A stretch of 64,000 nt of DNA from an uncultured Oscillospiraceae bacterium (GTDB lineage: Bacteria; Bacillota; Clostridia; Oscillospirales; Oscillospiraceae). The DNA lies in NCBI GenBank assembly GCA_964617335.1, contig CAZTXG010000002.1, positions 15,912 through 79,911 of the forward strand, written 5' to 3'. A program made the translations under genes and the position numbers. Below the pieces are notes generated by a model that was given only the letters and a program-made list of their open reading frames with translations, made no database searches and was not told where the DNA came from. Shown here piece after piece: positions 2,580-58,038 of this stretch (position 1 is its first letter; every line of letters starts with the position of its first letter).

Positions 2580-3899
2580 CTAAGAGTAAATGCGTCTTCT
2601 AAAGGAAGGGGGTATGCCCATTTCATCGCGGTATTTTGCAACGGTGCGCCGGCTGACGTTTATGCCTGTGCGGCGCAGGGCATCCACTATTGCCTCATCG
2701 CTCATGGGGGACCTGCGGTCCTCGTTGTGGATTATGGCCTGAATACTGCTTTCAATGCCGATTTTTGTAATCAGGGGGTGGGAATCAACAGAACTTTTCG
2801 GGAAAAAGTAGTCCGTGGGGAACATCCCCCAGGAGCACTCCACATATTTGTCCTTTAAGGCACGGCTGACTGTGGATTCACTTCTGCCAATTTTCTCGGC
2901 AAGCTCTTTCCGGTTATAGGGCCGCAGAGACTCAGGGCCAAACTCGAAAAAATCACGCTGACTTGCAAGAAGCTGGGAAGCGCAGGCCATAAGGGTTTCG
3001 CAGCGCTGACGGATACTGTCTTTAAGCCACTGAGCCTTTTTCATATTATTGTCAAGAAAGCTTCGGACAGTTTCGTTGTCCGTCTCGTTATATATTTTAA
3101 TGTAGGTGTCATCGATAATTAAACTATCGGCGGCGATTTGGTTAAGCTCAACCACAAATTGACCGTCTTTTTTTATAATCCTTATATCCGGAGATATATA
3201 CTCATTTCCTGCAAGGCGCCCCTCAAGCATTAGGGGCTTGGGGTTCAAAGAGCGTATGGCCTGCTGGGCATTTACAACTCTATGGAGGGGGATGCCGGTT
3301 TTTCTGGCGATTTGGGGAAGCTTGTTTTTTCCCAAAAGCTCAAGATGGCTTTGTGCCACCTTCCATGCATCGCTGTCTTTAAGACCACGGCGCTCAAGCT
3401 GAAGCAGGATGCATTCTCTGGGGTTAAAGGCGCCGACTCCGGCAGGCTCCAAAGACTGAAGGGCATCTAAAGCTGTTTTAAGATCGTCAAGAGAAAGATG
3501 GGCTGCCTGAACCAGCCTTTCAACATCGTCATAGCAGAGGTAGCCGTTTTCGTCCAGCAGATATATAAGGGCATAGCCTATGCGCTGGATATGCTCGGGC
3601 AGCTTTAACATGGCAAGCTGGATGCGAAGTGACACTATGGGCGAATCATTGTCGTCTGTAACACGCTCGGATATATCGTCGCTGTCTCCGTATTCGGGAC
3701 GGAAGCGGGAGGAGCGGCGGCACTTTTCCGCATAATCTATGCTATCAAAGGTGATGACGGGGTTTTCCTCGATTTCTTTTACAAGGTACTCGTAAAGCTC
3801 TGCCGAGGGCATTTGCAAAACAGAAAGAGATTGGAGCATACGGGGAGACAGTATTTGCGCCTGCTCCTGAAGCTGCTGTGCGCCGAATCCATAATCCAT
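2580..3899 (-). CDS. rpoN: RNA polymerase sigma-54 factor
   Basis: 439 aa. Gln-rich N-terminus (GAQQLQEQAQILSPRMLQSLSVLQM) and a C-terminal RpoN box (SRRTVAKYRDEMGIP). Confidence 0.9.
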   Translation of the reverse strand: MDYGFGAQQLQEQAQILSPRMLQSLSVLQMPSAELYEYLVKEIEENPVITFDSIDYAEKCRRSSRFRPEYGDSDDISERVTDDNDSPIVSLRIQLAMLKLPEHIQRIGYALIYLLDENGYLCYDDVERLVQAAHLSLDDLKTALDALQSLEPAGVGAFNPRECILLQLERRGLKDSDAWKVAQSHLELLGKNKLPQIARKTGIPLHRVVNAQQAIRSLNPKPLMLEGRLAGNEYISPDIRIIKKDGQFVVELNQIAADSLIIDDTYIKIYNETDNETVRSFLDNNMKKAQWLKDSIRQRCETLMACASQLLASQRDFFEFGPESLRPYNRKELAEKIGRSESTVSRALKDKYVECSWGMFPTDYFFPKSSVDSHPLITKIGIESSIQAIIHNEDRRSPMSDEAIVDALRRTGINVSRRTVAKYRDEMGIPPSFRRRIYS

Positions 3900-9544: not shown

Positions 9545-10678
9545 ATGGACTACGGGAAACTATTTGAATCGGATATTTCCAGCGAAGCTGTCAAAAAGTG
9601 GCGGCAGCAGGGGAAAAAGGCCCTTGGAATAATCTGCTGTCATGTGCCGGAGGAAATCTTCCATGCGGCGGGCATTTTGCCTGTTCGCATGAGGGCTACG
9701 GGATGCGTGGATGCCAGCGAGGCTGAAATGTGGATGTCAAGCTTTAGCTGCAGCTTTGCTAAAAGTGTTCTTCAGTATTGGCTCGAGGGCAGATATGAGC
9801 TGGACGGCATTGTGGCTTCTGACGGCTGCATTATGGCCTCGCGCATTTACGACAATGCCGAGTATATTAACCGCACCCGAAACAAAGGGCAAACTATAAT
9901 ACAGATTGCAGCGCCGAGAAAGCACACAGAAAGAACGGTTCCCTTTTATGTGAGCGAGCTTCGTGACCTTATAGAGGCTCTGGAAAATCTGACGGGAGAA
10001 AAGATTACGGAGGAAAAGCTCAGAGCTTCTGTTGAGGTTTATAATGAAGCCAGAGAGCTTATAAAAGAGCTTTATGAGCTGCGAAAAGAAAAAAACCCCG
10101 TAATAAGCGGAGTCGAAGCCCTTCAAATAACTCTGTCTAAAACAAATATGCCCATAGAGGAGTACATAGAACTGCTCAAGGCATTTTTGGCAGACGCAAA
10201 AAACCGCAAGCCTATAGATTCATGGCGGGCCCGCCTTATGATAATCGGCTCTGCTCTGGATGATCCCGAATATCTGCGGGTTATTGAAGATAAGGGAGGG
10301 CTTATAGTCACCGACACCCTCTGCTTTGGCCAAATGCAATTCCGTGACCCAATGGAGCAAAAAGATGATGAAGACATACTCACAACAATTGCCGATTACT
10401 ATCTAAGGCGTGTTGTCTGCCCGAGGATGATGGACGTACATGAGGAGCTTCACGATTTCATAATAAACTCCGTAAAGGAGTTTTCTTGTGACGGTGTGAT
10501 TTATCAAAGGATGCAAAACTGCGAGTGCTGGGGCGGAGAAAACATCCTTCTGGAGAAAAAGCTGAAAGATGCCGGCATACCTCAGATAACGGTTGAACGT
10601 GAACAGCAAATGGCAAATGCCGCCCAGCTTGCGGTGCGGGCCGAAGCATTTATAGAAATGGTGGAAAAGGAGGAATAA
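9545..10678 (+). CDS. BCR / 2-hydroxyacyl-CoA-dehydratase family, small catalytic subunit (BzdN/BcrC/HgdB-like), module 1
   Basis: 377 aa. Cys motifs CCHVP, FSCSF, DGC, CFG, CPR and CECWGGE are shared with the paralogs at 12350 and 17381. AGGAGG RBS. Confidence 0.85.
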   Translation: MDYGKLFESDISSEAVKKWRQQGKKALGIICCHVPEEIFHAAGILPVRMRATGCVDASEAEMWMSSFSCSFAKSVLQYWLEGRYELDGIVASDGCIMASRIYDNAEYINRTRNKGQTIIQIAAPRKHTERTVPFYVSELRDLIEALENLTGEKITEEKLRASVEVYNEARELIKELYELRKEKNPVISGVEALQITLSKTNMPIEEYIELLKAFLADAKNRKPIDSWRARLMIIGSALDDPEYLRVIEDKGGLIVTDTLCFGQMQFRDPMEQKDDEDILTTIADYYLRRVVCPRMMDVHEELHDFIINSVKEFSCDGVIYQRMQNCECWGGENILLEKKLKDAGIPQITVEREQQMANAAQLAVRAEAFIEMVEKEE

Positions 10679-10680
10679 TC

Positions 10681-11973
10681 ATGTCGGAAGTAAAAGATTT
10701 GGAACAGATGGTGTTAGACGGGGAAATGACCATAACGGAATTTGCCTGTGCTAAAGTTGACGGGTCTCTGGAGCGCATGAGGGAAAAACATCCCGAGATG
10801 CTCTGGACAATGGAAATACAAAAATTCATGTGGGACAGCTATAGGGATGTAAAGAAAAACGGTCAAAAGCTTTGCTTTTACGGCGGCTCTGTGCCAACGG
10901 AGATTATAGCCGCCTTTGACTGCCTTGGCTTTTATATGGACACCATACCCTTTCGTCTTTCCACAAACCCGAACCTCACATCTAAATACATAGACGAGGC
11001 GGAAAAATACGTAAGCGCCTCCATGTGCGGCCTTGACAAGGTGGAGCTGGGGGCCTGGCTCTCCGGCGCATACGGCATGGAGCCTGACCTTTTTGTTTAT
11101 AACTCCGTACCCTGCGACAGCTCCAGAGTCGCCTATCCGGCAATGGAGAAAATAATCGGAGTTCCAAGCTTTTCCTTTGACCACCCCTTCCGTCGGGACG
11201 AGCGGGGAGCCGAGTATCTTGCAGACCAGCTGGAAGATTTTATAGAGTTTATGGAAGAACAAACCGGCAAGAAGCTGGATTGGGATAAGCTTAAATATTA
11301 TATGCAAAACGCCAACCGCAACTTTGAGCTTCAGAAAAAATGTGCCGACCTGCGCAAACATAAGCCCTGCCCCCTGCCCGGAAGACTTTTGGTTTTAAAC
11401 GGCACCACAAACGCCGTTGCCTGCTATCCCGAAATGGGCGACCTTTACGAGGGAGAGCTTGAAGCCGGTCAGATGATGATAGACTTAGGGCTAGGTGCCT
11501 GCCCTGATGAAAAATACCGTGTGGGTATGCTGCAAAACATGATTTGGGGCCACGCTAAAATAATGGATTGGATGGAAAGAACCTACAATGCCGTTGCCGT
11601 TATGGACGCCTTTGGTTTTCAGGGAGATATTTATTACGAGCACCTTGATGACAGGCGTGACTGCCTAAAGACCATGGGAAGAAAAATGCAAAACAACCCC
11701 ATGATTCACGGAGCCTCGGGGCCTTCCCGCCATCACTTAGAGCTTGTTGAAAAAATATTTGACGAGTATGACCCCAACGTATCTATGTTCCTGGGTCATG
11801 TGGGCTGCAAACACACCTGGGCCTCATCTAAAATCATAACAGATATGATTCAGGATAAATACGGACTGCCCACCCTTTTTGTTGACCTTGACGCCATCGA
11901 CGGAAGATATAAATCCGGCGATGAAATTAAAGATCAGATATCCGAATACTTTGAAACAGTGGTTATGAAGTAA
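10681..11973 (+). CDS. BCR / 2-hydroxyacyl-CoA-dehydratase family, large catalytic subunit (BzdO/BcrB/HgdA-like), module 1
   Basis: 430 aa, starting 2 nt after the previous stop. Motifs MCGLDK, VPCDSSR, KPCPLPG and GHVGCKHTW are shared with the paralogs at 13489 and 18519. Confidence 0.85.
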   Translation: MSEVKDLEQMVLDGEMTITEFACAKVDGSLERMREKHPEMLWTMEIQKFMWDSYRDVKKNGQKLCFYGGSVPTEIIAAFDCLGFYMDTIPFRLSTNPNLTSKYIDEAEKYVSASMCGLDKVELGAWLSGAYGMEPDLFVYNSVPCDSSRVAYPAMEKIIGVPSFSFDHPFRRDERGAEYLADQLEDFIEFMEEQTGKKLDWDKLKYYMQNANRNFELQKKCADLRKHKPCPLPGRLLVLNGTTNAVACYPEMGDLYEGELEAGQMMIDLGLGACPDEKYRVGMLQNMIWGHAKIMDWMERTYNAVAVMDAFGFQGDIYYEHLDDRRDCLKTMGRKMQNNPMIHGASGPSRHHLELVEKIFDEYDPNVSMFLGHVGCKHTWASSKIITDMIQDKYGLPTLFVDLDAIDGRYKSGDEIKDQISEYFETVVMK

Positions 11974-12180: not shown

Positions 12181-12349
12181 GTATCTTGTGTGACTTGGGT
12201 CTATGCGGGCAACAGTCACTCAGCGCGGCTCACTCCCACTTAATTTCGCGCTATTAGTTAAAATTTTACTTATGACAGCGTGACCCTTTAGGGTGTCGGC
12301 GTGTCATAGGATGAAATTATTGCCCCAAGAACAATAAAGGAGGAGACAC

Positions 12350-13468
12350 ATGGATTACCAGAAATTATTCGAAAAAGACATTAACCAGGAGTCGGTTAAA
12401 GCTTGGAGAGCACAGGGGAAAAAGGCCATAGGCTATATTTGCTGTCATGTTCCTATTGAAATTTTGCAGGCACTTGACATTCTGCCCGTTCGCATCAGAG
12501 CAACAGGCGTAACCGAAACCCCCGAGGCAGACACATGGATGTCCACATTCAGCTGCAGCTTTGCTAGAGGTATGCTTCAGCGCTGGATGGACGGCACCTA
12601 TGAGCTTGACGGACTTATCACCAGTGACGGCTGCATGATGTCATCCCGCACCTATGATAACGCAGAGTATCAGGGCAAGGGAGACGGCAGGTTCTATATG
12701 CAGATCGGCGCACCCCGTATGTATAAGGGCGAGCTTGAAAAGAGCTATTACCGTGAAGAGATTGCCGACCTTATAAAGGGTCTTGAGGAGTTTTCCGGCA
12801 ACAAGCTTACAGATGAAAATCTTAAGGCTGCCATAGAGAAGGAAAATAAGGCCCGCGGCCTTATCCGCCAGGTTTTCGAGCTTAGAAAAGCCGAGCATCC
12901 CGTAATAAGCGGCGAGGACGCCCTGCAGATTGCTCTTGCTCACTGCGATTATCCCGTAGATGAGTACATAGCAATGCTTGAGGCATTTTTGGCAGACGCC
13001 AAAAACCGCGCTCCCATCACCGACAGCCGCGCACGTCTCATGCTTATCGGTTCTGCTCTTGATAACGCCGGATACATTAAGGTTATCGAAGAAAAGGGCG
13101 GACTCGTAGTTGCAGACGCAACCTGCTTCGGCAGCAGACCTTTTGCCGCCGATGTTGAAATCAAAGACAATCTTATTGACAGTCTTTCCGAGTTCTATCT
13201 CAACCGTATACTTTGCCCCCGTATGCTTGACAACCGCGTTAAGCTTCAGAAGATGATAGTTGACACCTGTAAGGAATATAACGTACAGGGCGTCATATAC
13301 GAAAAGATGCAGTATTGCGAGTGCTGGGGCGGCGAAAGTCTCTATCTCGAGCCTGACCTTAAGGACATCGGTGTTCCTATGCTTCAGCTTGAGCGTGAAG
13401 AGCATCTTGCAAACGCCGGCCAGCTTGCAATCCGTGCAGAGGCCTTTATCGAAATGATAGAGAACTAA
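12350..13468 (+). CDS. BCR / 2-hydroxyacyl-CoA-dehydratase family, small catalytic subunit, module 2
   Basis: 372 aa paralog of 9545 and 17381 with the same conserved Cys set. AGGAGG RBS. Confidence 0.85.
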   Translation: MDYQKLFEKDINQESVKAWRAQGKKAIGYICCHVPIEILQALDILPVRIRATGVTETPEADTWMSTFSCSFARGMLQRWMDGTYELDGLITSDGCMMSSRTYDNAEYQGKGDGRFYMQIGAPRMYKGELEKSYYREEIADLIKGLEEFSGNKLTDENLKAAIEKENKARGLIRQVFELRKAEHPVISGEDALQIALAHCDYPVDEYIAMLEAFLADAKNRAPITDSRARLMLIGSALDNAGYIKVIEEKGGLVVADATCFGSRPFAADVEIKDNLIDSLSEFYLNRILCPRMLDNRVKLQKMIVDTCKEYNVQGVIYEKMQYCECWGGESLYLEPDLKDIGVPMLQLEREEHLANAGQLAIRAEAFIEMIEN

Positions 13469-13488
13469 GAAAAGGAGGATATAACAAA

Positions 13489-14796
13489 ATGAGTGAAAAA
13501 AAAGTTAGAGATACTAGATTAGAAGACGCGGTAATGCGCGGCGAGCTTTCTGTTTTCGATTTCTGCTGCCAGAAGATTGAAGGACAGATTGAGCGTATGA
13601 AGGAAAGAAACCCCGACCTCCTTTGGACTCTTGACATTCAGTCTGTCATGTGGCACAACTACCGTGACGCTCAGAAGTCCGGTAAGAAGCTTGTCTTCTT
13701 CGGCGGTCCGGTTCCCGTGGATATCATAGTCGCTTTTGACTGTATCCCCGTATACCTTGACACAATTCCCATCCGTCTTTCCCCCAACCCCGTCCTGACA
13801 GGTAAGTTCATCGACTCTGCCGAAAGATATGTTCCCCAGACCACCTGCGGTCTGTGCAAAACCTATCTCGGAACCGCCCTTGAGGACCAGTACGGCTCCA
13901 AGCCCGACGCTTTCGTCTATTCCGCAGTTCCCTGCGACTCCTCCCGTGTTGTTTATCCCAACATGGAAAGATTGTTCGACGTTCCCACCTTCGCTTTTGA
14001 CTATCCCTACCGCCGTGACGCCCGTGGCCACGAATATCTCGTCGCTCAGACCGAGAAGTTCGTTGAGTTCATGGAAGAGCTGACAGGCACAAAGCTTGAC
14101 TGGGAAAAGCTTAAAGTCGCAATGGGCCACTCCAACAACACCTATGAGCTTCAGGGTAAGTGCGCCGACCTGCGTAAGCGTAAGCCCTGCCCCCTGCCCG
14201 GACGTATGCTGGTTCTCAACGGAACCTCCAACGCCATGGCCTGCTTCCCCGAGATGGCAGAGCTTCTCCAGAAGGAGCTTGAAGTCGGCGAAATGCTCTA
14301 TGAGCTTGGCATGGGCCCCTGCCCCAATGGTGAAAAGCACCGTGCGGCCCTTCTCCAGAATATGCTTTGGTCCAGCTCCGGCGTTATGGACTGGCTTGAA
14401 AAAGAATATGATACCGTTGCTGTTATGGACGCCTTCGGCTTCCAGCACGGTGACCTGTATCAGGATCTTGACGATAGGCATCACTGCTTCACCGTCATGG
14501 CAAAGAAGATGCAGAACAACCCCATGATTCACGGTGCCGCAGGCCCCTCCGAGAACTTTGTATACCTCGTAGACAAGATTTTCGAAGAGTACGACCCAGA
14601 CGTATCCATGTTTGTCGGACATATCGGCTGCAAGCACACTTGGGCTTCCGCAAAGATGGTTACCGACATGATTCAGGATAAGTACGGCATTCCCTCTCTG
14701 TATCTCGACGTTGACGGCATCGACGGCCGTTATAAGTCCCCCGACGAGATTAAGGGTCAAATCGCTGAATATATGGACACTGTTGTCAATAAGTAA
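13489..14796 (+). CDS. BCR / 2-hydroxyacyl-CoA-dehydratase family, large catalytic subunit, module 2
   Basis: 435 aa paralog of 10681 and 18519 (TCGLCK, VPCDSSR, KPCPLPG, GHIGCKHTW). AAGGAGG RBS. Confidence 0.85.
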   Translation: MSEKKVRDTRLEDAVMRGELSVFDFCCQKIEGQIERMKERNPDLLWTLDIQSVMWHNYRDAQKSGKKLVFFGGPVPVDIIVAFDCIPVYLDTIPIRLSPNPVLTGKFIDSAERYVPQTTCGLCKTYLGTALEDQYGSKPDAFVYSAVPCDSSRVVYPNMERLFDVPTFAFDYPYRRDARGHEYLVAQTEKFVEFMEELTGTKLDWEKLKVAMGHSNNTYELQGKCADLRKRKPCPLPGRMLVLNGTSNAMACFPEMAELLQKELEVGEMLYELGMGPCPNGEKHRAALLQNMLWSSSGVMDWLEKEYDTVAVMDAFGFQHGDLYQDLDDRHHCFTVMAKKMQNNPMIHGAAGPSENFVYLVDKIFEEYDPDVSMFVGHIGCKHTWASAKMVTDMIQDKYGIPSLYLDVDGIDGRYKSPDEIKGQIAEYMDTVVNK

Positions 14797-15148: not shown

Positions 15149-15164
15149 TGGCACAAGCTTTGCT
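15149..15164 (+). promoter_or_regulatory. sigma-54 (-24/-12) promoter
   Basis: TGGCAC (15149-15154), 5 nt (aagct), then TTGCT (15160-15164). This is an exact match to TGGCAC-N5-TTGCW spacing. It lies ~80 nt upstream of the ATG at 15246. Confidence 0.75.
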
Positions 15165-15245: not shown

Positions 15246-16016
15246 ATGATAACCGTTGGAATCGATTGCGGCAGCCAGAACACCAAGGGTGCTGTCCTGA
15301 AGGATGGTAAGGTTGTTGCAAAGACCATAGCTCCCACTGCGTTTGACGCGGATATTGCGGCTGAGAACGTATTAAAGGAACTTTTGGAATCAGCAGGAAT
15401 AAGCAGAGAAGAAGTTGACAGCATTGTTATCACCGGCATAGGACGTGAGTTAGTCAAATGGGGCGACAAGGAAGTCAACGAGGTTGGCGCGGCCGTTCGC
15501 GGGGCGAGATTTGCCCTGCCCGATACGGAAACTGTCATTGACATGGGAGCAGACAGCTGCCGTGTAATCCGTCTCAACCCGGACGGAACAGTTATGAAGT
15601 ACGAGGCAAACGACAAGTGCGCCTCTGGAGCAGGCACCTTTATAGAGGCCATGGCTCGGGCGCTTCAAATAACCACAGAGGAAATGGGCGACTTTTCCCT
15701 GCGCCACACCAAGGATTTAGCAACCAACGCCCAGTGTGTTGTTTTTGCAGAGTCCGAGGTCATTTCCCTCATCCACGCCAAAGAAACCCGAGAGGACATA
15801 GCTTTCGGCGTACATATGGGAATATCGAACCGCATAGCGTCTATGATCCGCAGGGTGGGCCTGACAGACAAATACACCATGATAGGCGGCCCCGCTTATA
15901 ACAAGGGTCTTGTCCGCTGTATGTCCGATGTTTTTGAAAGAGAAATCAGAGTACCCGAGGATAACCAGCTTCTCAGCGCTATAGGCGCTGCGATCTTCGG
16001 CACGGAGAATAAGTAA
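15246..16016 (+). CDS. BadF/BadG/BcrA/BcrD-family ATPase (BzdP/BcrD/HgdC-like), divergent copy
   Basis: 256 aa. N-terminal actin-fold phosphate-1 motif MITVGIDCGSQNTKG. Bridging-cluster Cys candidates are NDKCASGAG and NAQCVVFAESE. The phosphate-2 motif is degenerate (DMGADSCRV). Confidence 0.85.
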   Translation: MITVGIDCGSQNTKGAVLKDGKVVAKTIAPTAFDADIAAENVLKELLESAGISREEVDSIVITGIGRELVKWGDKEVNEVGAAVRGARFALPDTETVIDMGADSCRVIRLNPDGTVMKYEANDKCASGAGTFIEAMARALQITTEEMGDFSLRHTKDLATNAQCVVFAESEVISLIHAKETREDIAFGVHMGISNRIASMIRRVGLTDKYTMIGGPAYNKGLVRCMSDVFEREIRVPEDNQLLSAIGAAIFGTENK

Positions 16017-16032: not shown

Positions 16033-16932
16033 ATGGCTGAAATAGAAAAAGTAGAATATTGGAGATGGAAGGAATCCAACTGGAAAAACCCTGACATCCC
16101 TGACTGGCACGGAAGCCTTATAACCGCCGGTGTAGATATCGGCTCTACCAGTACCCAGGCTGTTATCATGGCCGACGGCATACCCTATGCATATTCCAAC
16201 ATGAGAACCGGCTCTAACAGCCCCGATTCCGCAATCGACGCGATTAACTGGGCAATGAAGGACACCGGATTGACACTTGAGGATATAACCTATACAATAG
16301 GTACGGGATACGGACGTGTAAACGTACCCTTTTCCAACAAAACCGTAACAGAAATAACCTGCCACTCAAAAGGCGCAAACTTTATTTACGGACCTACCAC
16401 CCGCACGATTCTCGATATGGGCGGACAGGACTGTAAAGCCATACACTGCGATGAAAACGGCGCTGTTACATCTTTTATGATGAACGACAAGTGCGCTGCC
16501 GGTACAGGCCGCGGCATGGAAGTTATTGCAAACCTTCTTGCTGTCCGTGTTGAGGATATCGGCAGGATGTCCTTTGAAATCGATGAAGAGCCGCCCCCGG
16601 TTTCCTCCACCTGTGTTATTTTCGCAAAAAGTGAAGCTACAAAGCTTATGCGTGCAGGCTGGACAAAGGAAAAGGTTCTGGCGGCATATTGTCATGCTAT
16701 GGCACTGCGTGTTGTGCGCCTTCTCGAGCGTAACGGCATGGAGCTTGACTTCGCCATCACAGGCGGTATTGCCAAGAATATAGGCGTTGTAAAACGCATA
16801 GAACGACTAATGGGAGTTACCGCTCTTGAACCTAAATGGGACACCCAGATTGCCGGCGCAGCCGGTGCTGCTCTTATTGCCAAGGACCTTGTTGAGAGAA
16901 AAAGAGCCAGAGAGGCAGTTGCAGCAAAATAA
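16033..16932 (+). CDS. BadF/BadG/BcrA/BcrD-family ATPase (BzdQ/BcrA/HgdC-like) with a Trp-rich N-terminal extension
   Basis: 299 aa. Motifs GVDIGSTSTQ, DMGGQDCKAI, NDKCAAGTGRG and SSTCVIFAKSE. Carries a ~35-aa N-terminal extension (EYWRWKESNWKNPDIPDW). Confidence 0.85.
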   Translation: MAEIEKVEYWRWKESNWKNPDIPDWHGSLITAGVDIGSTSTQAVIMADGIPYAYSNMRTGSNSPDSAIDAINWAMKDTGLTLEDITYTIGTGYGRVNVPFSNKTVTEITCHSKGANFIYGPTTRTILDMGGQDCKAIHCDENGAVTSFMMNDKCAAGTGRGMEVIANLLAVRVEDIGRMSFEIDEEPPPVSSTCVIFAKSEATKLMRAGWTKEKVLAAYCHAMALRVVRLLERNGMELDFAITGGIAKNIGVVKRIERLMGVTALEPKWDTQIAGAAGAALIAKDLVERKRAREAVAAK

Positions 16933-16995
16933 GGGACAAAGCTTATACACAGAACCTTGAGAACTAAAAGTGCAAGATGGAAGGAGGCGAAAGCC

Positions 16996-17271
16996 GTGAT
17001 AGCAAACTATGGCTATGAGGACGGTTCCGGTCACTATTACATCAAGATAGACACCGCCAAATGTGCCGAGTGTTCTGACAAGCCTTGTATAAAGGCGTGT
17101 CCGGAGCAGCTTTACGTTACAGAACTGGATGATTTTGACGACGAAGTTATAATCATACGGGAAGATGCCCGCAACACCTTGCAAACAAACTGCGCTAACT
17201 GCAAAGCCGACCAAAAAACGGAGCTTTGCAGACAAGTCTGTCCCTCGGACGCTATTGGATTCTCATGGTGA
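16996..17271 (+). CDS. 2x[4Fe-4S] ferredoxin (BzdM-position; extended Cys spacing)
   Basis: In-frame GTG at 16996, 8 nt after AGGAGG (16982-16987); the ORF track starts at 16957. Motifs are CAECSDKPCIKACP (Cx2Cx4Cx3CP) and CANCKADQKTELCRQVCP (Cx2Cx8Cx3CP). Confidence 0.8.
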   Translation: MIANYGYEDGSGHYYIKIDTAKCAECSDKPCIKACPEQLYVTELDDFDDEVIIIREDARNTLQTNCANCKADQKTELCRQVCPSDAIGFSW

Positions 17272-17380: not shown

Positions 17381-18502
17381 ATGAGTTACCAGAAATTATT
17401 CGAGACCAAAATTTCAGGCGAAGCCGCAAAAGCTTGGCAGGCACAAGGCAAGAAAGCCATAGGTTATGTATGCTGTCATGTTCCTGAAGAAATCTTCTAT
17501 GCGGCGGACGTTCTCCCCATCCGCCTTCGGGCAACGGACTGCGTTGACAGCAGCGAGGCGGAGGCATGGATGTCCAGCTTCAGCTGCAGCTTCGCACGCT
17601 CGATTCTCCAGTATCTTATCGACGGCACCTATAAGCTTGACGGTCTTGTACAGACTGACGGCTGCATGATGCCCGCCCGCATTATGGACAACTGGGAGCA
17701 TATTTCCGAGAAGGAAGGAAAAAACCAGTTTACCCATTTTATAGGCGCTCCCCGCATAACAAACGATATTTCTATCGGATTCTACAAGTCTGAGCTTCAG
17801 GAGCTGGTTGATGCCGTTTCTAAATTCTCCGGAGTTGAGATTACAGACGAGGCTCTTAAGGCAGCTATTGTCAAGACCAACGAAATGCGCGCCCTTATAG
17901 ACCAGGTTTATGAGCTGCGCCGTGCGGAAAATCCCGTTGTTTCCGGTGCCGAAGTTCTCTCCATCACCCTCGCCGAGTGCGACCATCACATTGACGACTA
18001 TATCCAGATGCTCAAGGATTTCCTCGCAGACGCGAAAAACCGCAAGCCCATCGAGGCTCGCGCACGTCTTATGATTATTGGCTCCGCTCTTGACAACCCC
18101 GAATACATAAAGGTTATCGAGGAAAAGGGCGGCCTTATAGTTGCAGACGACCTCTGCTTCGGCAGACGTGCTTTCGGCCCCCAGCTTGAAGTTGATGACA
18201 GTGATGTTCTCGGCTCCATTGCAAAGTACTATCTTGAGCGCAACGTATGTCCCCGCAGTCTGGACAACCGTCCTACTATGCATAAGGAAATCGCCGACAT
18301 CGCTAAAGAATACAATGTTCAGGGCGTTGTTTACCAGAAGATGCAAAACTGCGAATGCTGGGGCGGAGAAGCTTATTATCTGGAGCCTGACCTTAAGGAC
18401 ATCGGCATTCCCATGCTTCAGCTTGAGCGTGAGGAGCAGATGGCAAACGCAGGTCAGCTCGCGGTTCGTGCCGAAGCTTTCATCGAAATGTTAGAGAAGT
18501 AA
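17381..18502 (+). CDS. BCR / 2-hydroxyacyl-CoA-dehydratase family, small catalytic subunit, module 3
   Basis: 373 aa paralog of 9545 and 12350 with the same Cys set. AGGAGG RBS. Confidence 0.85.
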   Translation: MSYQKLFETKISGEAAKAWQAQGKKAIGYVCCHVPEEIFYAADVLPIRLRATDCVDSSEAEAWMSSFSCSFARSILQYLIDGTYKLDGLVQTDGCMMPARIMDNWEHISEKEGKNQFTHFIGAPRITNDISIGFYKSELQELVDAVSKFSGVEITDEALKAAIVKTNEMRALIDQVYELRRAENPVVSGAEVLSITLAECDHHIDDYIQMLKDFLADAKNRKPIEARARLMIIGSALDNPEYIKVIEEKGGLIVADDLCFGRRAFGPQLEVDDSDVLGSIAKYYLERNVCPRSLDNRPTMHKEIADIAKEYNVQGVVYQKMQNCECWGGEAYYLEPDLKDIGIPMLQLEREEQMANAGQLAVRAEAFIEMLEK

Positions 18503-18518
18503 GAAGGAGGAATAAATA

Positions 18519-19844
18519 ATGGCTAAACCTAAACAGAACTTTGACCCGACAAAGCCGGTTAATATGATAGAGCTTACCTGTGAGCAGGTTGACAGTATTT
18601 ATCAGCATATGCTTTCAAAGGGTATGCCCGAAATCATGTGGACCGTTGAAATTCAGAAGTTCACATGGGAAGAAGTCCGTGACGCTGCGAAAAACGGCAA
18701 AAAGCTTGTTGCCTTTGGCGGTCCGGTTCCCGTTACCATCATCCGTGCTTTTGACTGCGTTCCTTTCTTCCTTGATACTATCCCCACCCGTATCGCTTCC
18801 ATGGAAGACCTCTGCGGACGCTTTATTGACGAAACTGAAAAGTTTGCTCCCCAGAGTATGTGCGCTATCGACAAGGCACAGCTTGGTGTTATGCTCAAGG
18901 GCGAACTTGGCGTTAAGGTAGACGCCTTTGTTCACGCCACCGTCCCCTGCGACTCTGCCCGTATTGCCTATCCCCTTATGGAGCGTCTTATGGACTGCCC
19001 CAGCTACACCTTTGACTGCCCCTTCCGTCATGACGACAAGGGCTTTAAGTATGTAGCAGACCAGATTGAAGCCTTCATCCCCTTCATGGAAGAGCTTACC
19101 GGTCTTAAATGGGACGACGAGCGCAAGGCGAAGTTTAAACAGATAAACGAAGAGTCCAACAAGGCTTATGAGCTGCTTATCCAGCTTGCCGAGCTCCGCA
19201 AGAAAAAGCCCTGCGTACTTCCCGGACGTATGCTCGTTCTTAACGAGATTATCGCTCCTCTTGCTGGAACCCCTGAAGTTACCGAAATGCTCCAGACTCA
19301 GCTTGACATGGGCAATATGCTTGCCGACATGGGAATGACCGCCACAAGATGCCCCGAGGAGCGTTATCGTGTATGTCTCATGCAGAATATGCTCTGGTCA
19401 AACACCGGCATCATGGACTGGATGGAAAAGACCTATGGCGCTATCACCGTTATGGACGGCTTCGGATATCAAGACGGCGTAATTATTCAGGATCTCGACA
19501 ACTGGGAAGCTGTTAAGTATCAGACCGCTAAGTCTATGCTTCTTGTTCCCATGATTCACGGTGCCACCGGCCCCACTGAATACTGGCTCAAGGTCATCGA
19601 TAAGATGTACGAGGAGTTCGGCGTAAACGTATCCATCTTCATGGGTCACGTTGGCTGCAAGCACACTTGGGCATCGGGCAAAATCGTCACCGACTACATC
19701 CAGGAAAAGTATGGTTTACCCACCCTGTATGTGGACGTCGACGCAATCGACCCCCGCTACAAGTCAAACGACGAGCTGCGTGCGCAGATCGGCGAATACA
19801 TGGAATCCGTTGTGGGAGCACATAACTTCACAAAGGAAGCCTAA
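18519..19844 (+). CDS. BCR / 2-hydroxyacyl-CoA-dehydratase family, large catalytic subunit, module 3
   Basis: 441 aa paralog of 10681 and 13489 (MCAIDK, VPCDSAR, KPCVLPG, GHVGCKHTW). AAGGAGG RBS. Confidence 0.85.
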   Translation: MAKPKQNFDPTKPVNMIELTCEQVDSIYQHMLSKGMPEIMWTVEIQKFTWEEVRDAAKNGKKLVAFGGPVPVTIIRAFDCVPFFLDTIPTRIASMEDLCGRFIDETEKFAPQSMCAIDKAQLGVMLKGELGVKVDAFVHATVPCDSARIAYPLMERLMDCPSYTFDCPFRHDDKGFKYVADQIEAFIPFMEELTGLKWDDERKAKFKQINEESNKAYELLIQLAELRKKKPCVLPGRMLVLNEIIAPLAGTPEVTEMLQTQLDMGNMLADMGMTATRCPEERYRVCLMQNMLWSNTGIMDWMEKTYGAITVMDGFGYQDGVIIQDLDNWEAVKYQTAKSMLLVPMIHGATGPTEYWLKVIDKMYEEFGVNVSIFMGHVGCKHTWASGKIVTDYIQEKYGLPTLYVDVDAIDPRYKSNDELRAQIGEYMESVVGAHNFTKEA

Positions 19845-19868
19845 GCACCTTAAACTAAAAGAAAAATG

Positions 19869-19902
19869 CCGTGACCGCGGGAAATTAATTCTGCGGTCAC
19901 GG
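19869..19902 (+). other. 10-bp stem-loop between module 3 and the CooC-like gene
   Basis: CCGTGACCGC (19869-19878) pairs with GCGGTCACGG (19893-19902) across a 14-nt loop. No U-tract follows, so it is probably a processing or stability element rather than a terminator. Confidence 0.3.
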
Positions 19903-19944
19903 TACATAGAAAACAACCTTTTTTAGAAAAGCGAGGGACCAAAA

Positions 19945-20706
19945 ATGGAAAAAATTAAAACTATAGCTGTCACAGGAAAAGGCGGAACCGGAAAAACCGT
20001 TGTATCCACCCTTCTTATCCGCGCTTTAAGCGAGCGCTTCCCGGGCAAGGTTCTCGCGATTGACGCGGACTCGGCTATGAGCCTGTGCTACACCACCGGA
20101 CTTAAGGTTGAAAAAACCGTAAGTAATCTCCGCACCGAACTTTTGGGTTCACGGCATGCCCGCGAGCAGCTTGATGCCGGCCCCACAAAAAACCTTATGC
20201 GCGGCATACTTGCCCATGGTGACGGCTTTGACCTTCTGACCATGGGAAGGCCTGAGGAGCCGGGCTGCTTCTGCGCCTGCAACGAGCTTCTCCGCTACGG
20301 AATTGACACCCTTATAGAGGACTATGACTATTGCATAGTTGACGGCGAAGCCGGCCCCGAACAGCTCAATCGCCGGGTTATGAAAAGTGTTGACCTGCTG
20401 CTGGTTATGGCGGATATGTCCGCTAGAAGCCTTCAGACTGCTGCAGGCATACTTGAAGTCGCCAAGGGCGGCGAAAACAACATAGACGTTAAGCAGGCAG
20501 GCCTTGTATTAAACCGCGTTCGCGGCGACGAGCCGAAGGATGAGCTTTTGAAAAAGGTTGGCCTTGAAGTATTGGCAGAGCTGCCTGAGGATGCCCTTGT
20601 CAACAAATATGACCGTGACAGCACTTCTCTCTTTGAGCTGCCCATGGATAGTGCCTGCCCCACAGCCATCCGTGAAATGCTGAAAAAGCTGATACCTGAG
20701 TTTTAA
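19945..20706 (+). CDS. CooC/AcsF-type MinD-family P-loop ATPase (metallocentre maturation factor-like)
   Basis: 253 aa. Deviant Walker A with signature Lys (TGKGGTGKTVVS). CxC-containing motif EEPGCFCACNELL, as in CooC nickel-insertion ATPases. Confidence 0.7.
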   Translation: MEKIKTIAVTGKGGTGKTVVSTLLIRALSERFPGKVLAIDADSAMSLCYTTGLKVEKTVSNLRTELLGSRHAREQLDAGPTKNLMRGILAHGDGFDLLTMGRPEEPGCFCACNELLRYGIDTLIEDYDYCIVDGEAGPEQLNRRVMKSVDLLLVMADMSARSLQTAAGILEVAKGGENNIDVKQAGLVLNRVRGDEPKDELLKKVGLEVLAELPEDALVNKYDRDSTSLFELPMDSACPTAIREMLKKLIPEF

Positions 20707-20730
20707 GCTGTACAATTAAGGAGTAAGCAC

Positions 20731-21081
20731 ATGAGCAAGACAGCGGCGCAAGGCGCACAGGAAAACCACAACCATTCCCGGGTCACGATTCACAGCCACG
20801 GCGAAAATGGGGTTCCCCATGTCCACACCAACAAAAAGGCGGTGCTGGGCCGTCTCGCTAAGGCGAGGGGGCATCTTGATTCCGTTATGACCATGATAGA
20901 AAACGACAGGGATTGCGCTGAGGTTTTAGTGCAAATTGCAGCCGTCCGGTCAGCGATAAATAATGCCGGCAAGGTTATTTTGCAGGACCATATCGCGGAA
21001 TGTGTCATAGAAGCGGTTTCCTGCGGTGACTATGAAAAAATAGAGGACCTTAACAAGGCAATAGAACGATTTATGAAGTAA
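20731..21081 (+). CDS. CsoR/RcnR-family (DUF156) metal-sensing transcriptional repressor with a His-rich N-terminal extension
   Basis: 116 aa. Core is KKAVLGRLAKARGHLDSVMTMIEN. Cys-25 residues-His-3 residues-Cys arrangement (DRDC...QDHIAEC), as in the x-C-H-C CsoR fingerprint. N-terminus is ENHNHSRVTIHSHGENGVPHVH. Confidence 0.8.
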   Translation: MSKTAAQGAQENHNHSRVTIHSHGENGVPHVHTNKKAVLGRLAKARGHLDSVMTMIENDRDCAEVLVQIAAVRSAINNAGKVILQDHIAECVIEAVSCGDYEKIEDLNKAIERFMK

Positions 21082-21107
21082 AAAAGCATAAAGCAAATAA
21101 ATAAGGT

Positions 21108-21171
21108 AGGTATACGCGAGGCTGTGATTTGGTCACAACACTCAAAAAGCGTATACCTTCTCTTATTTTTT
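21108..21171 (+). terminator. terminator candidate after the CsoR-like gene
   Basis: AGGTATACGC (21108-21117) pairs with GCGTATACCT (21149-21158). The loop contains an inner hairpin TGTGA/TCACA. A T-run follows at 21165-21171. Confidence 0.5.
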
Positions 21172-21645
21172 GCACAAAATTGTCTGTATGGCCAAGTCTC
21201 GGTTGCAATTATATTAAATTTAGTATAAGATGATAACCATGTTAAATATAATTGAAAAGCAGCTTAAGAAGTGTTATGCTGTGGCATTTAAATCAGGAAA
21301 AATCAATTTGGGTTTTTCCAAAGGGGGAATATATAGGGAAGTATGTAAAAAGTAATAAAGGAAAGTGCCGAAATATTCGAAATTGCATTGAGATTCCCCG
21401 CCATTAATAGCATTTAGCGGTCTCTTCATTGGACATGTTTACGAAATATTTTGCATCTTATCTTATATTATCTACAAACATTGCCCGCAAGTTAAATATC
21501 GATTGCATTTGTTAAATTTTTAGTTTAGAATTAACTGAGTGCAGATATTGACATTTCGACTTCGATTATTTCGAAAAGAGCATTTTCCTCGGGAAAAAGC
21601 GAGAGATTTCACTATCAATATGTATATGGTAAAGGAGTTCAAATT

Positions 21646-23091
21646 ATGGCGAAAAGAAATCTTAGCGGTGACTGGAAGCAGCACTACAAGGACCATCTCA
21701 TTACCTTGGAGGAAGCTGTTGACAAGCTTGAAGACGGGGACTGTGTATTTTTAGGACAGGCCACCATGAATCCCCTGGCCTTCCTTGATGCTATCTACGA
21801 AAAGAAAGACAAGTTCAAGAACCTCGGTTTCTGGTACAATGTCATGAGCGGCCCCGCAAATATGGTTTTCGATCCTAACGCAAAAGATCATTTCAAGCTT
21901 CGCAGTATCTATCAGCTGCCCATTGAGCGTATGGCTATCGACGAAGGCTCTATTCAGGTTCTCGGCTCCGGCTACGACCAGTACGAATACAGTATGTGGG
22001 AAAACGGCGTTAACACCACCGCCCTCACCTACTGCCCTCCCGATGAAAACGGCTGGTGCAACTGCGGCTGCTATGGCGTCTGCACAAACAACACCATCTC
22101 CCGCGACCCCCGCGTGGTGAAAAAGTTTGCTTTTATTGACAAGACCGGTGTTTATCCCGCTCCTGGTCCGGAAGAGGAAATAAGCGTTCACATTACCGAC
22201 TTTGACTACATAATCGAGCTTGACACAGAAATGCTTGAGATTCCTTCTCCTCTGCCCACACCGGTTGATGAGAAAATCGGCTCATACATCATTCCCTACC
22301 TCAGAAACGGTGACAAGATTCAAATCGGCTACGGCGGTCTTGGTGAAATTATAATCAAGTCCCTTAACGATTTCTCCGGCACCTTCGAAATATTCTCCGA
22401 GGTACTTTGTGACAACATGGTTCCCATGGTTGAATCCGGCAAGGTTACGGCCCTTTATGCTTCCAGCCCCGGCGGCTGCAGTGAGGCAACCTTTAAATGG
22501 CTTGCAACCACCGACAAAGACGTTCGTCTTTATCCGAGAACCCTCTGCATAGATCCTCTTGGAGTTATGGAGCAGGAGAACATGGTTGCCATTAACTCCA
22601 CCTTTATGTGCGACCTTCTCGGTCAGTGCTGCTCTGAAGCTCAGGGCCTGCGCCCCTACACCGGCATGGGCGGCTCTTTGGCATACATCTACGGCTCACA
22701 GCGTTGTAAGGGCGGCCGCAGCTTCATCTGCCTGCGCTCCACATATAAGGACGCAAACGGCGAAAGACAGTCCAACGTTCAGCCCTGGCTGCCCGAAGGC
22801 AGCATAGTCTCCATGCTGAAAAACTATGTTATGTTCCTGGTTTCCGAATGGGGCGTAGCAGACGTTTACCTCAAGACCTATCCCGAGAGAATCAAGGCCA
22901 TCATCAAGATTGCCCATCCGGACTTCCGCGAGTGGCTGAAAGAAAAGATTCTCACCACACCTCTTATTGACGAAAAGGATTTAGTAGGCTACGATATGTT
23001 TGACGAAAAAATACCCGAGCCCAGACAGCCGGCAACCTGCGTTCCCTTCAGACAGTATGAGTTCCCCATCCGTGATGACATGGAAAAATAA
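21646..23091 (+). CDS. acetyl-CoA hydrolase/transferase-family (family I) CoA-transferase, 4-hydroxybutyrate CoA-transferase (Cat2/AbfT)-like
   Basis: 481 aa. The N-terminus (ITLEEAVDKLEDGDCVFLG), a PPDENGW block, a candidate catalytic Glu in FSEVLCDN, a GMGG motif and the C-terminal IAHPDFREWLKEK all align by eye with my recollection of AbfT. Confidence 0.8.
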   Translation: MAKRNLSGDWKQHYKDHLITLEEAVDKLEDGDCVFLGQATMNPLAFLDAIYEKKDKFKNLGFWYNVMSGPANMVFDPNAKDHFKLRSIYQLPIERMAIDEGSIQVLGSGYDQYEYSMWENGVNTTALTYCPPDENGWCNCGCYGVCTNNTISRDPRVVKKFAFIDKTGVYPAPGPEEEISVHITDFDYIIELDTEMLEIPSPLPTPVDEKIGSYIIPYLRNGDKIQIGYGGLGEIIIKSLNDFSGTFEIFSEVLCDNMVPMVESGKVTALYASSPGGCSEATFKWLATTDKDVRLYPRTLCIDPLGVMEQENMVAINSTFMCDLLGQCCSEAQGLRPYTGMGGSLAYIYGSQRCKGGRSFICLRSTYKDANGERQSNVQPWLPEGSIVSMLKNYVMFLVSEWGVADVYLKTYPERIKAIIKIAHPDFREWLKEKILTTPLIDEKDLVGYDMFDEKIPEPRQPATCVPFRQYEFPIRDDMEK

Positions 23092-56176: not shown

Positions 56177-58024
56177 CTAAATTTCCCTGTCCTTTTCAGC
56201 ACACATGACGGCAATTTCCATAACCGGCGGCAAAAACTCGTTATAAAGCCCTCGTTTTGTATAGCTAGTGTGCAAAAGCTCGTGGGAAAGCTTGCTGCCC
56301 GGCTCGCCAAGATATTCGGAGTACAGTGCAAGTATATCCGGATTTTCGTGGGACTTGCGCTTTTCCTTGCCTTCGTCCTCCCGGCCTAAAGCCTCTCTGC
56401 GAAGTTTTAAAACCTCTGATATATCTGTTTCGCAGGTGGATTTTACCCTTGGCTGACCGCCGCCGTTTATGCAGCCGCCAGGACAGCCCATAATTTCAAC
56501 AAAATGATAAGGGCTTTCTCCGGCCGCAACCTGTTTCATGATGCTATCGGCGCTTTTAAGGCCACTGGCGACGGCAACCTTTGCCTCAACTCCCTCAAGA
56601 TAAGAAAAATCAGGCAGGCAGTCGGCAAATTTAACGGCCCCATGGTAAACACCTTCAAGACCCTCGGCGGGAGTAAGCTTAAGAGCGTTAGGTTCAAGCT
56701 CACGCCCTGTTACAAGTTCGTACACAGTGCGCAGGGCAGCTTCCATAACTCCTCCGGTCATGCCGAAAATATCCGCCGCTCCCGTGGAAAAGCCCAAAGG
56801 CGCGTCAAAGCTACTGTCGGGAAGATTTCTAAAGTCTATGCCCATGGTGCGAATCATCCTTGCAAGCTCACGGGTGGTTATGACAGCGTCCACATTGGGG
56901 GTGTCACGGTTTTGCATTTCGGGGCGGTCAATTTCAAACTTTTTCGCCGTGCAGGGCATAACGGAAACTACAAACATTTTCTCAGGGGGCAGACCGATTT
57001 TGTCCGTGTAATAGCTCTTTATAAGAGCGCCCAGCATAGTGTGGGGAGACTTGCAGGTGGAAAGGTGGGAAAGTTCATTGGGGAAGACGTGTTCAATATG
57101 CTTTATCCAACCCGGCGAGCAGCTTGTTATCATGGGAAGGCTTGCCCCCTTGCCTGTAACAGCATCACGCAGGCGGTGTAAAAGCTCTGTGCCCTCTTCC
57201 ATTATTGTAAGGTCTGCCGCAAAGTTTGTGTCAAAAACATCATCAAAGCCCAAATCTCGCAGGGCTGTTGCAAGCTTTCCTGTTACAAGAGTGCCGGCAG
57301 GCAGGGAAAATTCCTCACCTAAGGCGGCACGAACAGCCGGAGCAACCTGGACAGCCACCCTTATGTTCGGGTCATGAAGGGCATTCCATACCATGTCCAT
57401 TCCGTCGGTTTCCGTAAGAGCTCCCGTGGGACAGACAAGGGTGCACTGACCGCACATGGCGCAGTGGACACTTTCCAAAGGCATTCCCAAAGGCGGTGAG
57501 ATAACTGTGTTAAAGCCGCGGCTTTGTCCGCTTATTGCGCCCACACCCTGAACATTAGTGCAAACTGTGACACAGCGGCGGCAGAGTATGCACTTTCTTG
57601 TATCACGGGTTATGGAAGGGCTTATATCAAGCCTTGCAGGCCCTGCCTCGCCGTGGAAGTGGGTTTCCAAAATGCCCAAGGTGTTTCCAAGCTCCTGAAG
57701 CTCACAGCTAAGGTTTCTTGAGCAGGCCGTACACTCTTTGGGGTGGTTTGAAAGCATAAGATCATAAAGAACCTTTCGTGCCGAACGCACTTTTTCCGTG
57801 TTTGTGCGGACAACCATGCCCTCTTGAGCCTTAACTATGCATGAGGCCAAAAGGTTTTTTGCCCCTTCCACCTCAACAACACAGATGCGGCAGGAGCCGT
57901 GGGCATGAACCCCATGGAGATGGCAGAGTGTGGGTATGGTAATTCCGGAGAGCTTTGCGGCCTCAAGAATTGTGGAGCCTTCCGGCGCCGAGACCTTTTT
58001 TCCGTTTATTGTAAGTTCTATCAT
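56177..58024 (-). CDS. hydA: [FeFe]-hydrogenase catalytic subunit (HydA of a HydABC-type complex) with an atypical L1 motif
   Basis: ATG at 58024 after GAGGGAGG. N-terminal 2Fe-2S domain, a His-ligated cluster (HPKECTACSRNLSC) and two ferredoxin motifs. H-cluster motifs are TSCSPGW (canonical TSCCPxW), MPCTAKKFE and EIMGCPGGCINGGGQP. Confidence 0.85.
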   Translation of the reverse strand: MIELTINGKKVSAPEGSTILEAAKLSGITIPTLCHLHGVHAHGSCRICVVEVEGAKNLLASCIVKAQEGMVVRTNTEKVRSARKVLYDLMLSNHPKECTACSRNLSCELQELGNTLGILETHFHGEAGPARLDISPSITRDTRKCILCRRCVTVCTNVQGVGAISGQSRGFNTVISPPLGMPLESVHCAMCGQCTLVCPTGALTETDGMDMVWNALHDPNIRVAVQVAPAVRAALGEEFSLPAGTLVTGKLATALRDLGFDDVFDTNFAADLTIMEEGTELLHRLRDAVTGKGASLPMITSCSPGWIKHIEHVFPNELSHLSTCKSPHTMLGALIKSYYTDKIGLPPEKMFVVSVMPCTAKKFEIDRPEMQNRDTPNVDAVITTRELARMIRTMGIDFRNLPDSSFDAPLGFSTGAADIFGMTGGVMEAALRTVYELVTGRELEPNALKLTPAEGLEGVYHGAVKFADCLPDFSYLEGVEAKVAVASGLKSADSIMKQVAAGESPYHFVEIMGCPGGCINGGGQPRVKSTCETDISEVLKLRREALGREDEGKEKRKSHENPDILALYSEYLGEPGSKLSHELLHTSYTKRGLYNEFLPPVMEIAVMCAEKDREI

Positions 58025-58038
58025 AATTTTTTCCTCCC

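Follow-up and report, generated by a model that had tools for sequence, protein, structure and literature searches.

A third branch of the CooC/AcsF superfamily tied to benzoyl-CoA reductase/dehydratase-like enzymes, with a putative part in nickel loading

The window analysed here is a 64-kb stretch of contig CAZTXG010000002.1 (GenBank assembly GCA_964617335.1) from an uncultured Oscillospiraceae bacterium with a 1.8-Mb genome that is 98% complete. At the end of an operon for ATP-driven Fe-S radical enzymes it encodes a P-loop ATPase, open reading frame (ORF) 19945, and a CsoR/RcnR-family regulator, ORF 20731. The ATPase is best described as a member of a third branch of the CooC/AcsF superfamily, one that is tied to enzymes resembling benzoyl-CoA reductase (BCR) and dehydratases. 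By analogy with characterised relatives we lean, on balance, towards ORF 19945 being a dedicated accessory ATPase of a BCR/2-hydroxyacyl-CoA-dehydratase-like enzyme, likely loading it with Ni(II) and encoded together with a Ni/Co-responsive repressor. The two genes are:

19945-20706, plus strand, P-loop ATPase of the CooC/AcsF superfamily, HGD-D-linked clade, 253 aa (assigned by Pfam, motifs and tree)
20731-21081, plus strand, CsoR/RcnR-family repressor, InrS-like, 116 aa, with H32, C62, H87 and C91 and a His-rich N-terminus

ORF 19945 has both marks of the superfamily, a deviant Walker A with its signature lysine (GKGGTGKT, residues 11-18) and a CxC pair aligned to the metal site of CooC1 (Cys108/Cys110, within GCFCACN, residues 107-113). 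A first-pass annotation of the window had reported these motifs and the ORF coordinates, and all were confirmed. Across 54 clade members the CxC, the Asn three residues on and both Walker A lysines are invariant, so the motifs are not there by chance; the deviant Walker A, written GKGGxGK[ST], is present in 143 of 150 representatives. The closest solved relative is CooC1 of Carboxydothermus hydrogenoformans (3kje; E 3e-13, 53 bits), whose CYC (Cys112/Cys114) aligns with the CFC of ORF 19945. In CooC1 both monomers use these two cysteines to bind Zn where they meet in the dimer, and one Ni is bound per dimer with a Kd of 0.4 uM (PMC6006190). Pfam finds CbiA/AAA_31 and, weakly, Fer4_NifH (1e-7). 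An AlphaFold2 model of the protein is confident (pLDDT 93), and a fold search with it returned NifH, MinD, FlhG, BchL and CooC1, all at a TM score of ~0.7, so that the fold does not discriminate CooC from NifH or MinD. A third cysteine, residue 112 (CFCAC), is found in 112 of 120 close homologues, while the wider clade has A, P, S or other residues there.

Phylogenies, which the first-pass annotation had proposed for the P-loop protein, place it in a clade of its own. AcsF is a CooC paralogue encoded within acs operons and responsible for ATP-dependent insertion of Ni into the A-cluster of acetyl-CoA synthase (ACS). In a first tree of 189 sequences, the query clade, two HGD-D-linked proteins and 51 unlabelled representatives at 50% identity formed one clade (SH-aLRT 99), separate from the AcsF clade and from the CooC proteins adjacent to CO dehydrogenase (CODH); the latter formed their own clade (support 100) with the query outside it. 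A second tree was made by IQ-TREE from 88 rows, with bootstraps. Every one of its 35 proteins whose context shows HGD-D, BcrAD or a small CdhC-like partner lay on one side of a branch of length 0.35 (UFBoot 100, SH-aLRT 98), and none of the 53 proteins from CODH, ACS, CoxDE or other contexts fell on that side. The clade also has its own switch II, D[GAC]EAGxEQ[IVL][NSH] (DGEAGPEQLN in ORF 19945), where AcsF and CooC read EAGxEH[LI].

The label 'CooC-type' in the first-pass annotation holds at superfamily level only; annotation sources call close homologues 'CO dehydrogenase maturation factor'. ORF 19945 resembles CooC1 in fold, in deviant Walker A and in a CxC aligned with Cys112/114 (PMC6006190), but the similarity amounts to 53 bits, switch II is EAGxEQ(I/V/L)N and not EAGxEH(L/I), CODH-adjacent CooC groups elsewhere and the genome has no CODH. 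It is nearer to proteins in the AcsF position, its nearest labelled relatives (33-46% identity, 115-168 bits), with which it has GxGC(Y/F)CxxN in common, and a fragment of ACS from its middle domain is encoded in many of the HGD-D-linked loci. Yet the branch cited above (100/98) separates it from these too, it neither stands in an acs operon nor groups with proteins that do, and the HGD-D-linked loci are without ACS, CFeSP and RACo. By motif and fold it is CooC/AcsF-like; by clade and by partner it belongs to neither family.

A metagenome scan keyed on the switch II motif, that is on P-loop sequence alone and blind to context, yielded 80 loci (37-99% identity), which reduce to 36 lineages at 70% identity. 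HGD-D genes accompany the P-loop gene in 28 of the 36 and BcrAD genes alone in three more, on short contigs; four lineages have flanks of less than 1.5 kb, and one, made up of 22 mostly human-gut contigs, has ample flank with neither HGD-D nor BcrAD. Linkage to HGD-D/BcrAD is therefore found in 31 of the 32 informative lineages, and CODH, ACS, CFeSP and RACo in none of the 36. The first-pass annotation would have been undone by chance adjacency to the BCR-like genes; since the gene is linked to HGD-D/BcrAD and never to CODH/ACS, the co-occurrence stands. That the P-loop gene serves this enzyme family in a dedicated accessory role is, on these sequence comparisons, very probable.

Close genomes repeat the arrangement of the window. 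Many close homologues of the P-loop protein (72-94% identity) were found, with Clostridium sediminicola and Maledivibacter among the cultured carriers, and 27 species-level genomes labelled Oscillospiraceae, Clostridiales, Clostridia or Bacillota, all close kin, were compared. They keep the order large subunit, P-loop gene, regulator, CoA-transferase wherever it can be read (23 of 23 with upstream sequence, 25 of 25 with downstream sequence). In Maledivibacter (72% identity) the ATPases, ferredoxin, one HGD-D pair, P-loop gene and CoA-transferase are kept and the regulator is absent. Within the window's GTDB family an orthologue of the P-loop gene was found only in a genome of the same genus; 13 further homologues there comprise nine in AcsF positions, two with HGD-D, one with a small CdhC-like partner only and one on a contig too short to tell.

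A wider sample of 400 genomes of the phylum held P-loop homologues at 33-46% identity in 133 genomes. Among the 40 gene contexts that were fetched, 22 were the AcsF position of an acs cluster (CODH, ACS, CFeSP, RACo, P-loop, AcsD, AcsE), four were CoxD/CoxE-like, two had HGD-D with BcrAD, and 12 had other neighbours or a CODH gene only. Some AcsF-clade members lie off acs clusters: L073, L079, L083 and L086 adjoin genes for a MoxR-type AAA protein (CoxD-like) and a CoxE-like VWA protein, and L081 and L090 have a second conserved neighbourhood in common.

Neither the window nor the rest of the genome offers the partners known for CooC or for AcsF. As the first-pass annotation had said of the immediate surroundings, no CODH, copA or metal exporter is encoded, nor any nickel enzyme, in the whole 64-kb window. 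In the 98%-complete genome there is no match to CooS (TIGR01702) above cut-off, and no ACS/CdhC (PF03598), [NiFe] hydrogenase or NicO was found. The genome does have a CbiM-type energy-coupling factor (ECF) transporter, LarA-type proteins and LarC. Two Cu-type P1B ATPases above their family cut-off lie on other contigs, one with an HxlR-type regulator upstream and the other cut by the contig end; a third P1B ATPase, below cut-off, has an ArsR-type regulator upstream.

The partner enzyme is encoded directly upstream of ORF 19945, and two more catalytic pairs precede it:

9545-11973, plus strand, HGD-D pair 1 (small subunit 9545-10678, large subunit 10681-11973)
12350-14796, plus strand, HGD-D pair 2 (small subunit 12350-13468, large subunit 13489-14796)
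15246-16016, plus strand, BcrAD-type ATPase subunit (acyl-CoA dehydratase activase domain)
16033-16932, plus strand, BcrAD-type ATPase subunit, BzdQ-like (TIGR03192, 396.5 bits against a cut-off of 380.2)
16957-17271, plus strand, two-cluster ferredoxin-like protein
17381-18502, plus strand, small HGD-D subunit 3, BzdN-like, with the six Cys of the double-cubane site
18519-19844, plus strand, large HGD-D subunit 3, divergent, with a three-Cys site (C115/C144/C380) and without an equivalent of BzdO His131
21646-23091, plus strand, CoA-transferase of the acetyl-CoA hydrolase/transferase family, a conserved downstream neighbour with its own promoter region

The window thus has three catalytic HGD-D pairs for one pair of BcrAD ATPases and one P-loop gene. 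Compared with the class I benzoyl-CoA reductase BzdNOPQ (8s02) and with HadBC, a 2-hydroxyisocaproyl-CoA dehydratase (PDB 3o3m), the system has the same two-subunit BcrAD ATPase with a BzdQ-like member, a ferredoxin, the six BzdN cysteines in the small subunit and a three-Cys open-site cluster in the large one. The small subunits are BzdN-like (E 9e-39) although their scores lie below NCBIfam cut-offs, and they align with BzdN at each of the six Cys of its [8Fe-9S] site; the ligand roles of these cysteines have been described (PMC11971306). It differs in its three catalytic pairs and in the large subunit. When 29 large subunits of P-loop-linked loci were combined into a profile, it lay as close to BzdO (7e-44) as to HadB (3e-43), and large subunit 3 taken singly matches BzdO with an E of only 2e-3. 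The consensus of the clade is pCDSsaa where BzdO reads CCSHS, so that the catalytic His, which in BzdO stands beside the second cluster Cys, is absent. Given the equidistant profile and the missing His, the enzyme is BCR/dehydratase-like and not a bona fide benzoyl-CoA reductase. The literature that we found on BzdNOPQ- and HadBC-type systems (PMC11971306 included) mentions no CooC-like gene.

Two locus types recur. Type A loci are like the query (P-loop identity of at least 41%) and read BcrAD, BcrAD, ferredoxin, small subunit, large subunit, P-loop, often with a gap of less than 30 bp 5' of the P-loop gene. Type B loci read small subunit, large subunit, BcrAD, BcrAD, a protein of ~240 aa, P-loop. 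This protein has matches to PF03598 and to the ACS middle domain (9c0s_E, 3.7e-9), and its conserved C-x2-C-x5-C tail lines up with the beginning of the Cys motif of the A-cluster. It is encoded in 17 of the 36 metagenome lineages, in type B nearly always adjoining the P-loop gene; no homologue was found in the window's own genome. Examples are:

L089, 8738-9466, ~240-aa ACS-middle-domain protein
L157, 9282-9995, ~240-aa ACS-middle-domain protein
L143, 9242-9967, ~240-aa ACS-middle-domain protein
14 other lineages, ~240-aa ACS-middle-domain protein

Usual neighbours of the clade further include acyl-CoA dehydrogenases, ferredoxin-domain proteins, CoA-transferases and CoA ligases, and the genomes and metagenomes in which it occurs have anaerobic digesters, sediments and fermentations among their sources. 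A P-loop gene is also paired with a small CdhC-like gene in L154-L186 (22 contigs, mostly from human-gut metagenomes) and in L199, with no HGD-D or BcrAD within 10 kb. On the L154-L186 gut contigs the pair adjoins a gene for a DUF5714 protein with a weak NCBIfam match to 'metal-binding double selenoprotein MbdU' (149 bits against a cut-off of 600).

The regulator gene, ORF 20731, starts 24 bp after the P-loop gene and has its own ribosome-binding site. Its match to PF02583 (E 1.6e-25; 89.7 bits against a cut-off of 22.8) bears out the CsoR-type family named in the first-pass annotation. Two details needed amending: the N-terminal extension, said to hold seven His in ~25 residues, has six (H13, H15, H21, H23, H30 and H32), and the spacing given as C-x25-H-x3-C is C62-x24-H87-x3-C91. 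The best solved relative is InrS of Synechocystis (5fmn; E 3e-19); CsoR, FrmR and others rank behind it. Like InrS the protein has a His-rich N-terminus, and its HSH...PHVH segment, C62, H87 and C91 align with the InrS ligand positions, so that fingerprint typing at positions W-X-Y-Z, also proposed earlier, gives H-C-H-C, the InrS type. In 31 orthologues this set is kept, as is a His-rich N-terminus, whose length varies. The InrS ligands are numbered H21, C53, H78 and C82. The residue before the first Cys is Asp; the Cu-sensing CsoR of Mycobacterium tuberculosis has there a Tyr that plays a role in CsoR. That ORF 20731 senses Ni/Co and gates the operon is plausible. The target of InrS is the gene of a nickel exporter, whereas ORF 20731 closes an enzyme operon and is not encoded beside a metal efflux gene, no exporter being found in the window and NicO being absent from the genome. 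A search of the genome gave no other PF02583 gene. Adjacency to the P-loop gene is limited to the close clade labelled Oscillospiraceae and to two distant cases, L116 and L150; the link between regulator and operon is lineage-specific.

Regulatory signals on the operon are:

15149-15163, plus strand, perfect sigma-54 promoter consensus TGGCACAAGCTTTGC, 83 bp 5' of the first ATPase gene
19867-19904, plus strand, RNA hairpin with a 16-bp stem (-29 kcal/mol, z -6) and no U-tract directly behind it
21099-21172, plus strand, terminator-like hairpin and U-tract at the operon end, 3' of the regulator gene

The sigma-54 site is conserved as TTGGCACATTtTTTGCT in 16 orthologous loci. TGA-N-ACA repeats upstream of it may be activator sites; rpoN, the sigma-54 gene, lies in the same window (2580-3899, minus strand), and no enhancer-binding protein gene was identified there. 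The hairpin at 19867-19904 separates the genes for the large subunit and the P-loop protein. Orthologous loci keep it, with compensatory and G-U-compatible changes that suit an RNA element better than a site for protein binding. It also tracks the regulator: loci with the regulator have it, and loci with a short gap and no regulator do not. It may lower expression of the two accessory genes or mark a site of RNA processing or stabilisation. Because both genes lie between this hairpin and the terminator, they are probably on one transcript.

Searches of the cluster's intergenic regions by k-mers and alignment found only ribosome-binding sites, a sigma-70 promoter, the sigma-54 promoter and hairpins, with no conserved operator of CsoR type and, apart from the RNA-like hairpin, no conserved palindrome. 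One sequence of the ACCC-N4-GGGT type, ACCCTTTAGGGT, is present at 12283 and is unconserved in 35 related loci. G-tracts occur at 9247 and 9466 in the window; the same-genus genome G436 is without pair 1. Since no conserved operator was found and the hairpin fits an RNA element better, the target of the regulator in this operon is a putative one. An InrS-like H-C-H-C sensor fits the earlier suggestion that operon expression is tied to metal status; its adjacency is lineage-limited, and the operator search gave nothing conserved.

The mechanism that we propose would run as follows. ATP would join two P-loop monomers through the lysines of the deviant Walker A, by analogy with CooC1, and Cys108 and Cys110 of each monomer would hold one thiophilic metal at the dimer interface, most likely Ni(II). 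On hydrolysis the metal would pass to a site in the catalytic module; in other lineages its recipient would be the small ACS-middle-domain-like partner. ORF 20731 would act as an InrS-type repressor responsive to Ni or Co through His32, Cys62, His87 and Cys91, leaving the DNA when metal is available and so coupling expression to metal supply. Binding of metal, its identity and its target site, and the operator and effector of the regulator, are the parts of this scheme that we infer.

Whether the cargo is nickel is, in our judgement, evenly poised. Four lines of evidence point, indirectly, to nickel or to nickel or cobalt. The conserved site of the P-loop protein is the CxC-x2-N of CooC and AcsF, and the regulator is InrS-like with H-C-H-C. 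In the same GTDB family, InrS-like genes with His-rich N-termini are found at genuine acs operons, so that operons of known nickel enzymes have a sensor of this kind there. L205 has the gene 3'-terminal, behind those for RACo and a DUF3786 protein; L206 has it upstream of cooC-CODH-acsF-ACS, on the opposite strand. In the type B clusters of L136 and L138, ECF transporter genes start within 6 bp after the P-loop gene, in the order S component, NikN-like, CbiQ, CbiO, the last with a His-rich tail. The S component starts MHIPDGYL, which we take to be a NikM-type N-terminus, and the CbiM of the window's own genome has MHIMEG. The ACS-middle-domain-like protein of 17 lineages is a further hint of nickel. 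The sensor and transporter genes are:

L205, 1783-2124, InrS-like sensor at a CODH/ACS operon
L206, 479-820, InrS-like sensor at a CODH/ACS operon
L136, 10768-12039, ECF transporter genes after the P-loop gene
L138, 7156-9899, ECF transporter genes after the P-loop gene

A number of observations weigh against nickel, or against a sensor specific to this operon. NCBIfam names the S component of L136 and L138 CbiM, a cobalt transporter (PRK11909, 302 bits), which leaves cobalt as a possible substrate, although NCBIfam does not separate NikM from CbiM and names all of them CbiM. A nickel-related transporter occurs in one of the 36 metagenome lineages and regulators in three, nickel genes are not among the usual neighbours of the clade, and the intergenic searches gave no conserved operator. 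Solved relatives of the partner enzymes are Fe-S only: BzdNO carries [8Fe-9S] and an aqua-[4Fe-4S] cluster, and it was made with its Fe-S clusters in Escherichia coli without a helper factor, at 10.9 Fe per dimer (PMC11971306). The P-loop-linked large subunits have as invariant residues only the three Cys and an Asp after the second of them, an Asp that DCCP also has, and no obvious conserved extra ligands for nickel. The CxC loop (GRPEEPGCFC), read from the sequence, lies at the position of the NifH Cys97 loop. Finally, the genome uses nickel elsewhere, since it has LarA and LarC, and the sensor need not be specific to the operon. The bolder proposal, that a widespread group of radical enzymes of the BCR/2-hydroxyacyl-CoA-dehydratase family contains or requires nickel and that the CooC/AcsF-like clade is its nickel insertase, is put forward only tentatively and with some doubt; the nickel would sit either in a Ni-Fe-S site of the catalytic module or in the ACS-middle-domain-like partner.

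Several of these points would suit a P-loop protein that handles Fe-S clusters instead of nickel. A bridging cluster on the four Cys of the dimer could serve in assembly or repair, either of the [8Fe-9S] double cubane or of the [4Fe-4S] cluster with its open site, or could donate electrons in the ATP-driven manner of NifH. The fold fits NifH, BchL and MinD as well as it does CooC1, the Fer4_NifH match and the position of the CxC loop agree, the partner enzymes are rich in unusual Fe-S clusters (PMC11971306), and most loci are without a nickel-related gene. We nevertheless regard this as unlikely. CxC-x2-N is the metal site of CooC and AcsF, neither the CxxC of Mrp/Nbp35 nor the two-loop site of NifH, whose switch II Cys is absent from ORF 19945; the system already has an ATP-driven electron module of BcrAD type; and the InrS-like sensor and NikM-like transporter point to Ni or Co. 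The double cubane of BzdNO, moreover, is built in E. coli unaided (PMC11971306), and for that reason the part of the first-pass annotation that invoked a P-loop factor needed for a double-cubane cluster finds no support, while a dedicated factor is upheld at the genomic level by clade and linkage. A metal-free assembly or positioning ATPase of MinD/ParA type, exchanging for example the three catalytic modules on one ATPase module, would account for three catalytic pairs with one ATPase pair and one P-loop gene, in a superfamily that holds many such ATPases. It is quite improbable: a purely structural role does not require the CxC that is invariant throughout the clade, loci with a single catalytic pair retain the P-loop gene too, and a family-model search brought no MinD or ParA model near its cut-off.

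It is rather unlikely, though less so than either of these, that the CsoR-family protein is a general cytosolic sensor of Ni, Co or Cu with targets elsewhere and an incidental placement. That the genome has no other PF02583 gene, that it has other nickel users, that no conserved operator was seen in the cluster, and that adjacency stops at the close clade, L116 and L150, with none in Maledivibacter, would all be expected of such a sensor. They have to be set against the 25 of 25 close genomes with downstream sequence that keep the regulator directly after the P-loop gene, against P1B ATPases elsewhere that have adjacent regulators of their own (HxlR-type, ArsR-type), and against the related sensors inside genuine acs operons of the same family. 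As for the adjacency of the P-loop gene being accidental, or its product serving a CODH/ACS encoded elsewhere, the 'CO dehydrogenase maturation factor' label would suit it, but the linkage in 31 of 32 lineages, the separate clade and the genome without CODH or ACS already contradict it, and it is hardly credible.

Elsewhere in the window, on the minus strand at 56177-60446, is a multisubunit [FeFe] hydrogenase of NADH-linked type with a HydA-like large subunit and a Nuo51-like subunit.

To our knowledge, the only enzymes for which CooC and AcsF are known to be helpers are CO dehydrogenase and acetyl-CoA synthase. Full-text searches of the literature gave no paper that links CooC, AcsF or a 'CO dehydrogenase maturation factor' with BCR/dehydratase enzymes, and the Haft preprint on double-cubane neighbourhoods leaves a link between CooC-like proteins and BCR unmentioned. 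The branch described here is a third and well-separated one in the superfamily, tied to ATP-driven Fe-S radical enzymes, and its operon in the window gives an example of an InrS-type sensor inside an enzyme operon instead of beside an exporter. The helper clade hints at an undescribed metal-loading step of these enzymes. If the branch delivers nickel, they would form an unrecognised class of nickel enzymes, distinct from CODH/ACS, hydrogenase, urease, MCR, LarA and the rest of those known, and a heterologous host lacking the helper would make them in inactive form. Should it handle Fe-S clusters instead, it would be a new factor in the maturation of double-cubane or open-site clusters. In both cases it provides a concrete accessory gene for a large family of uncharacterised anaerobic enzymes.

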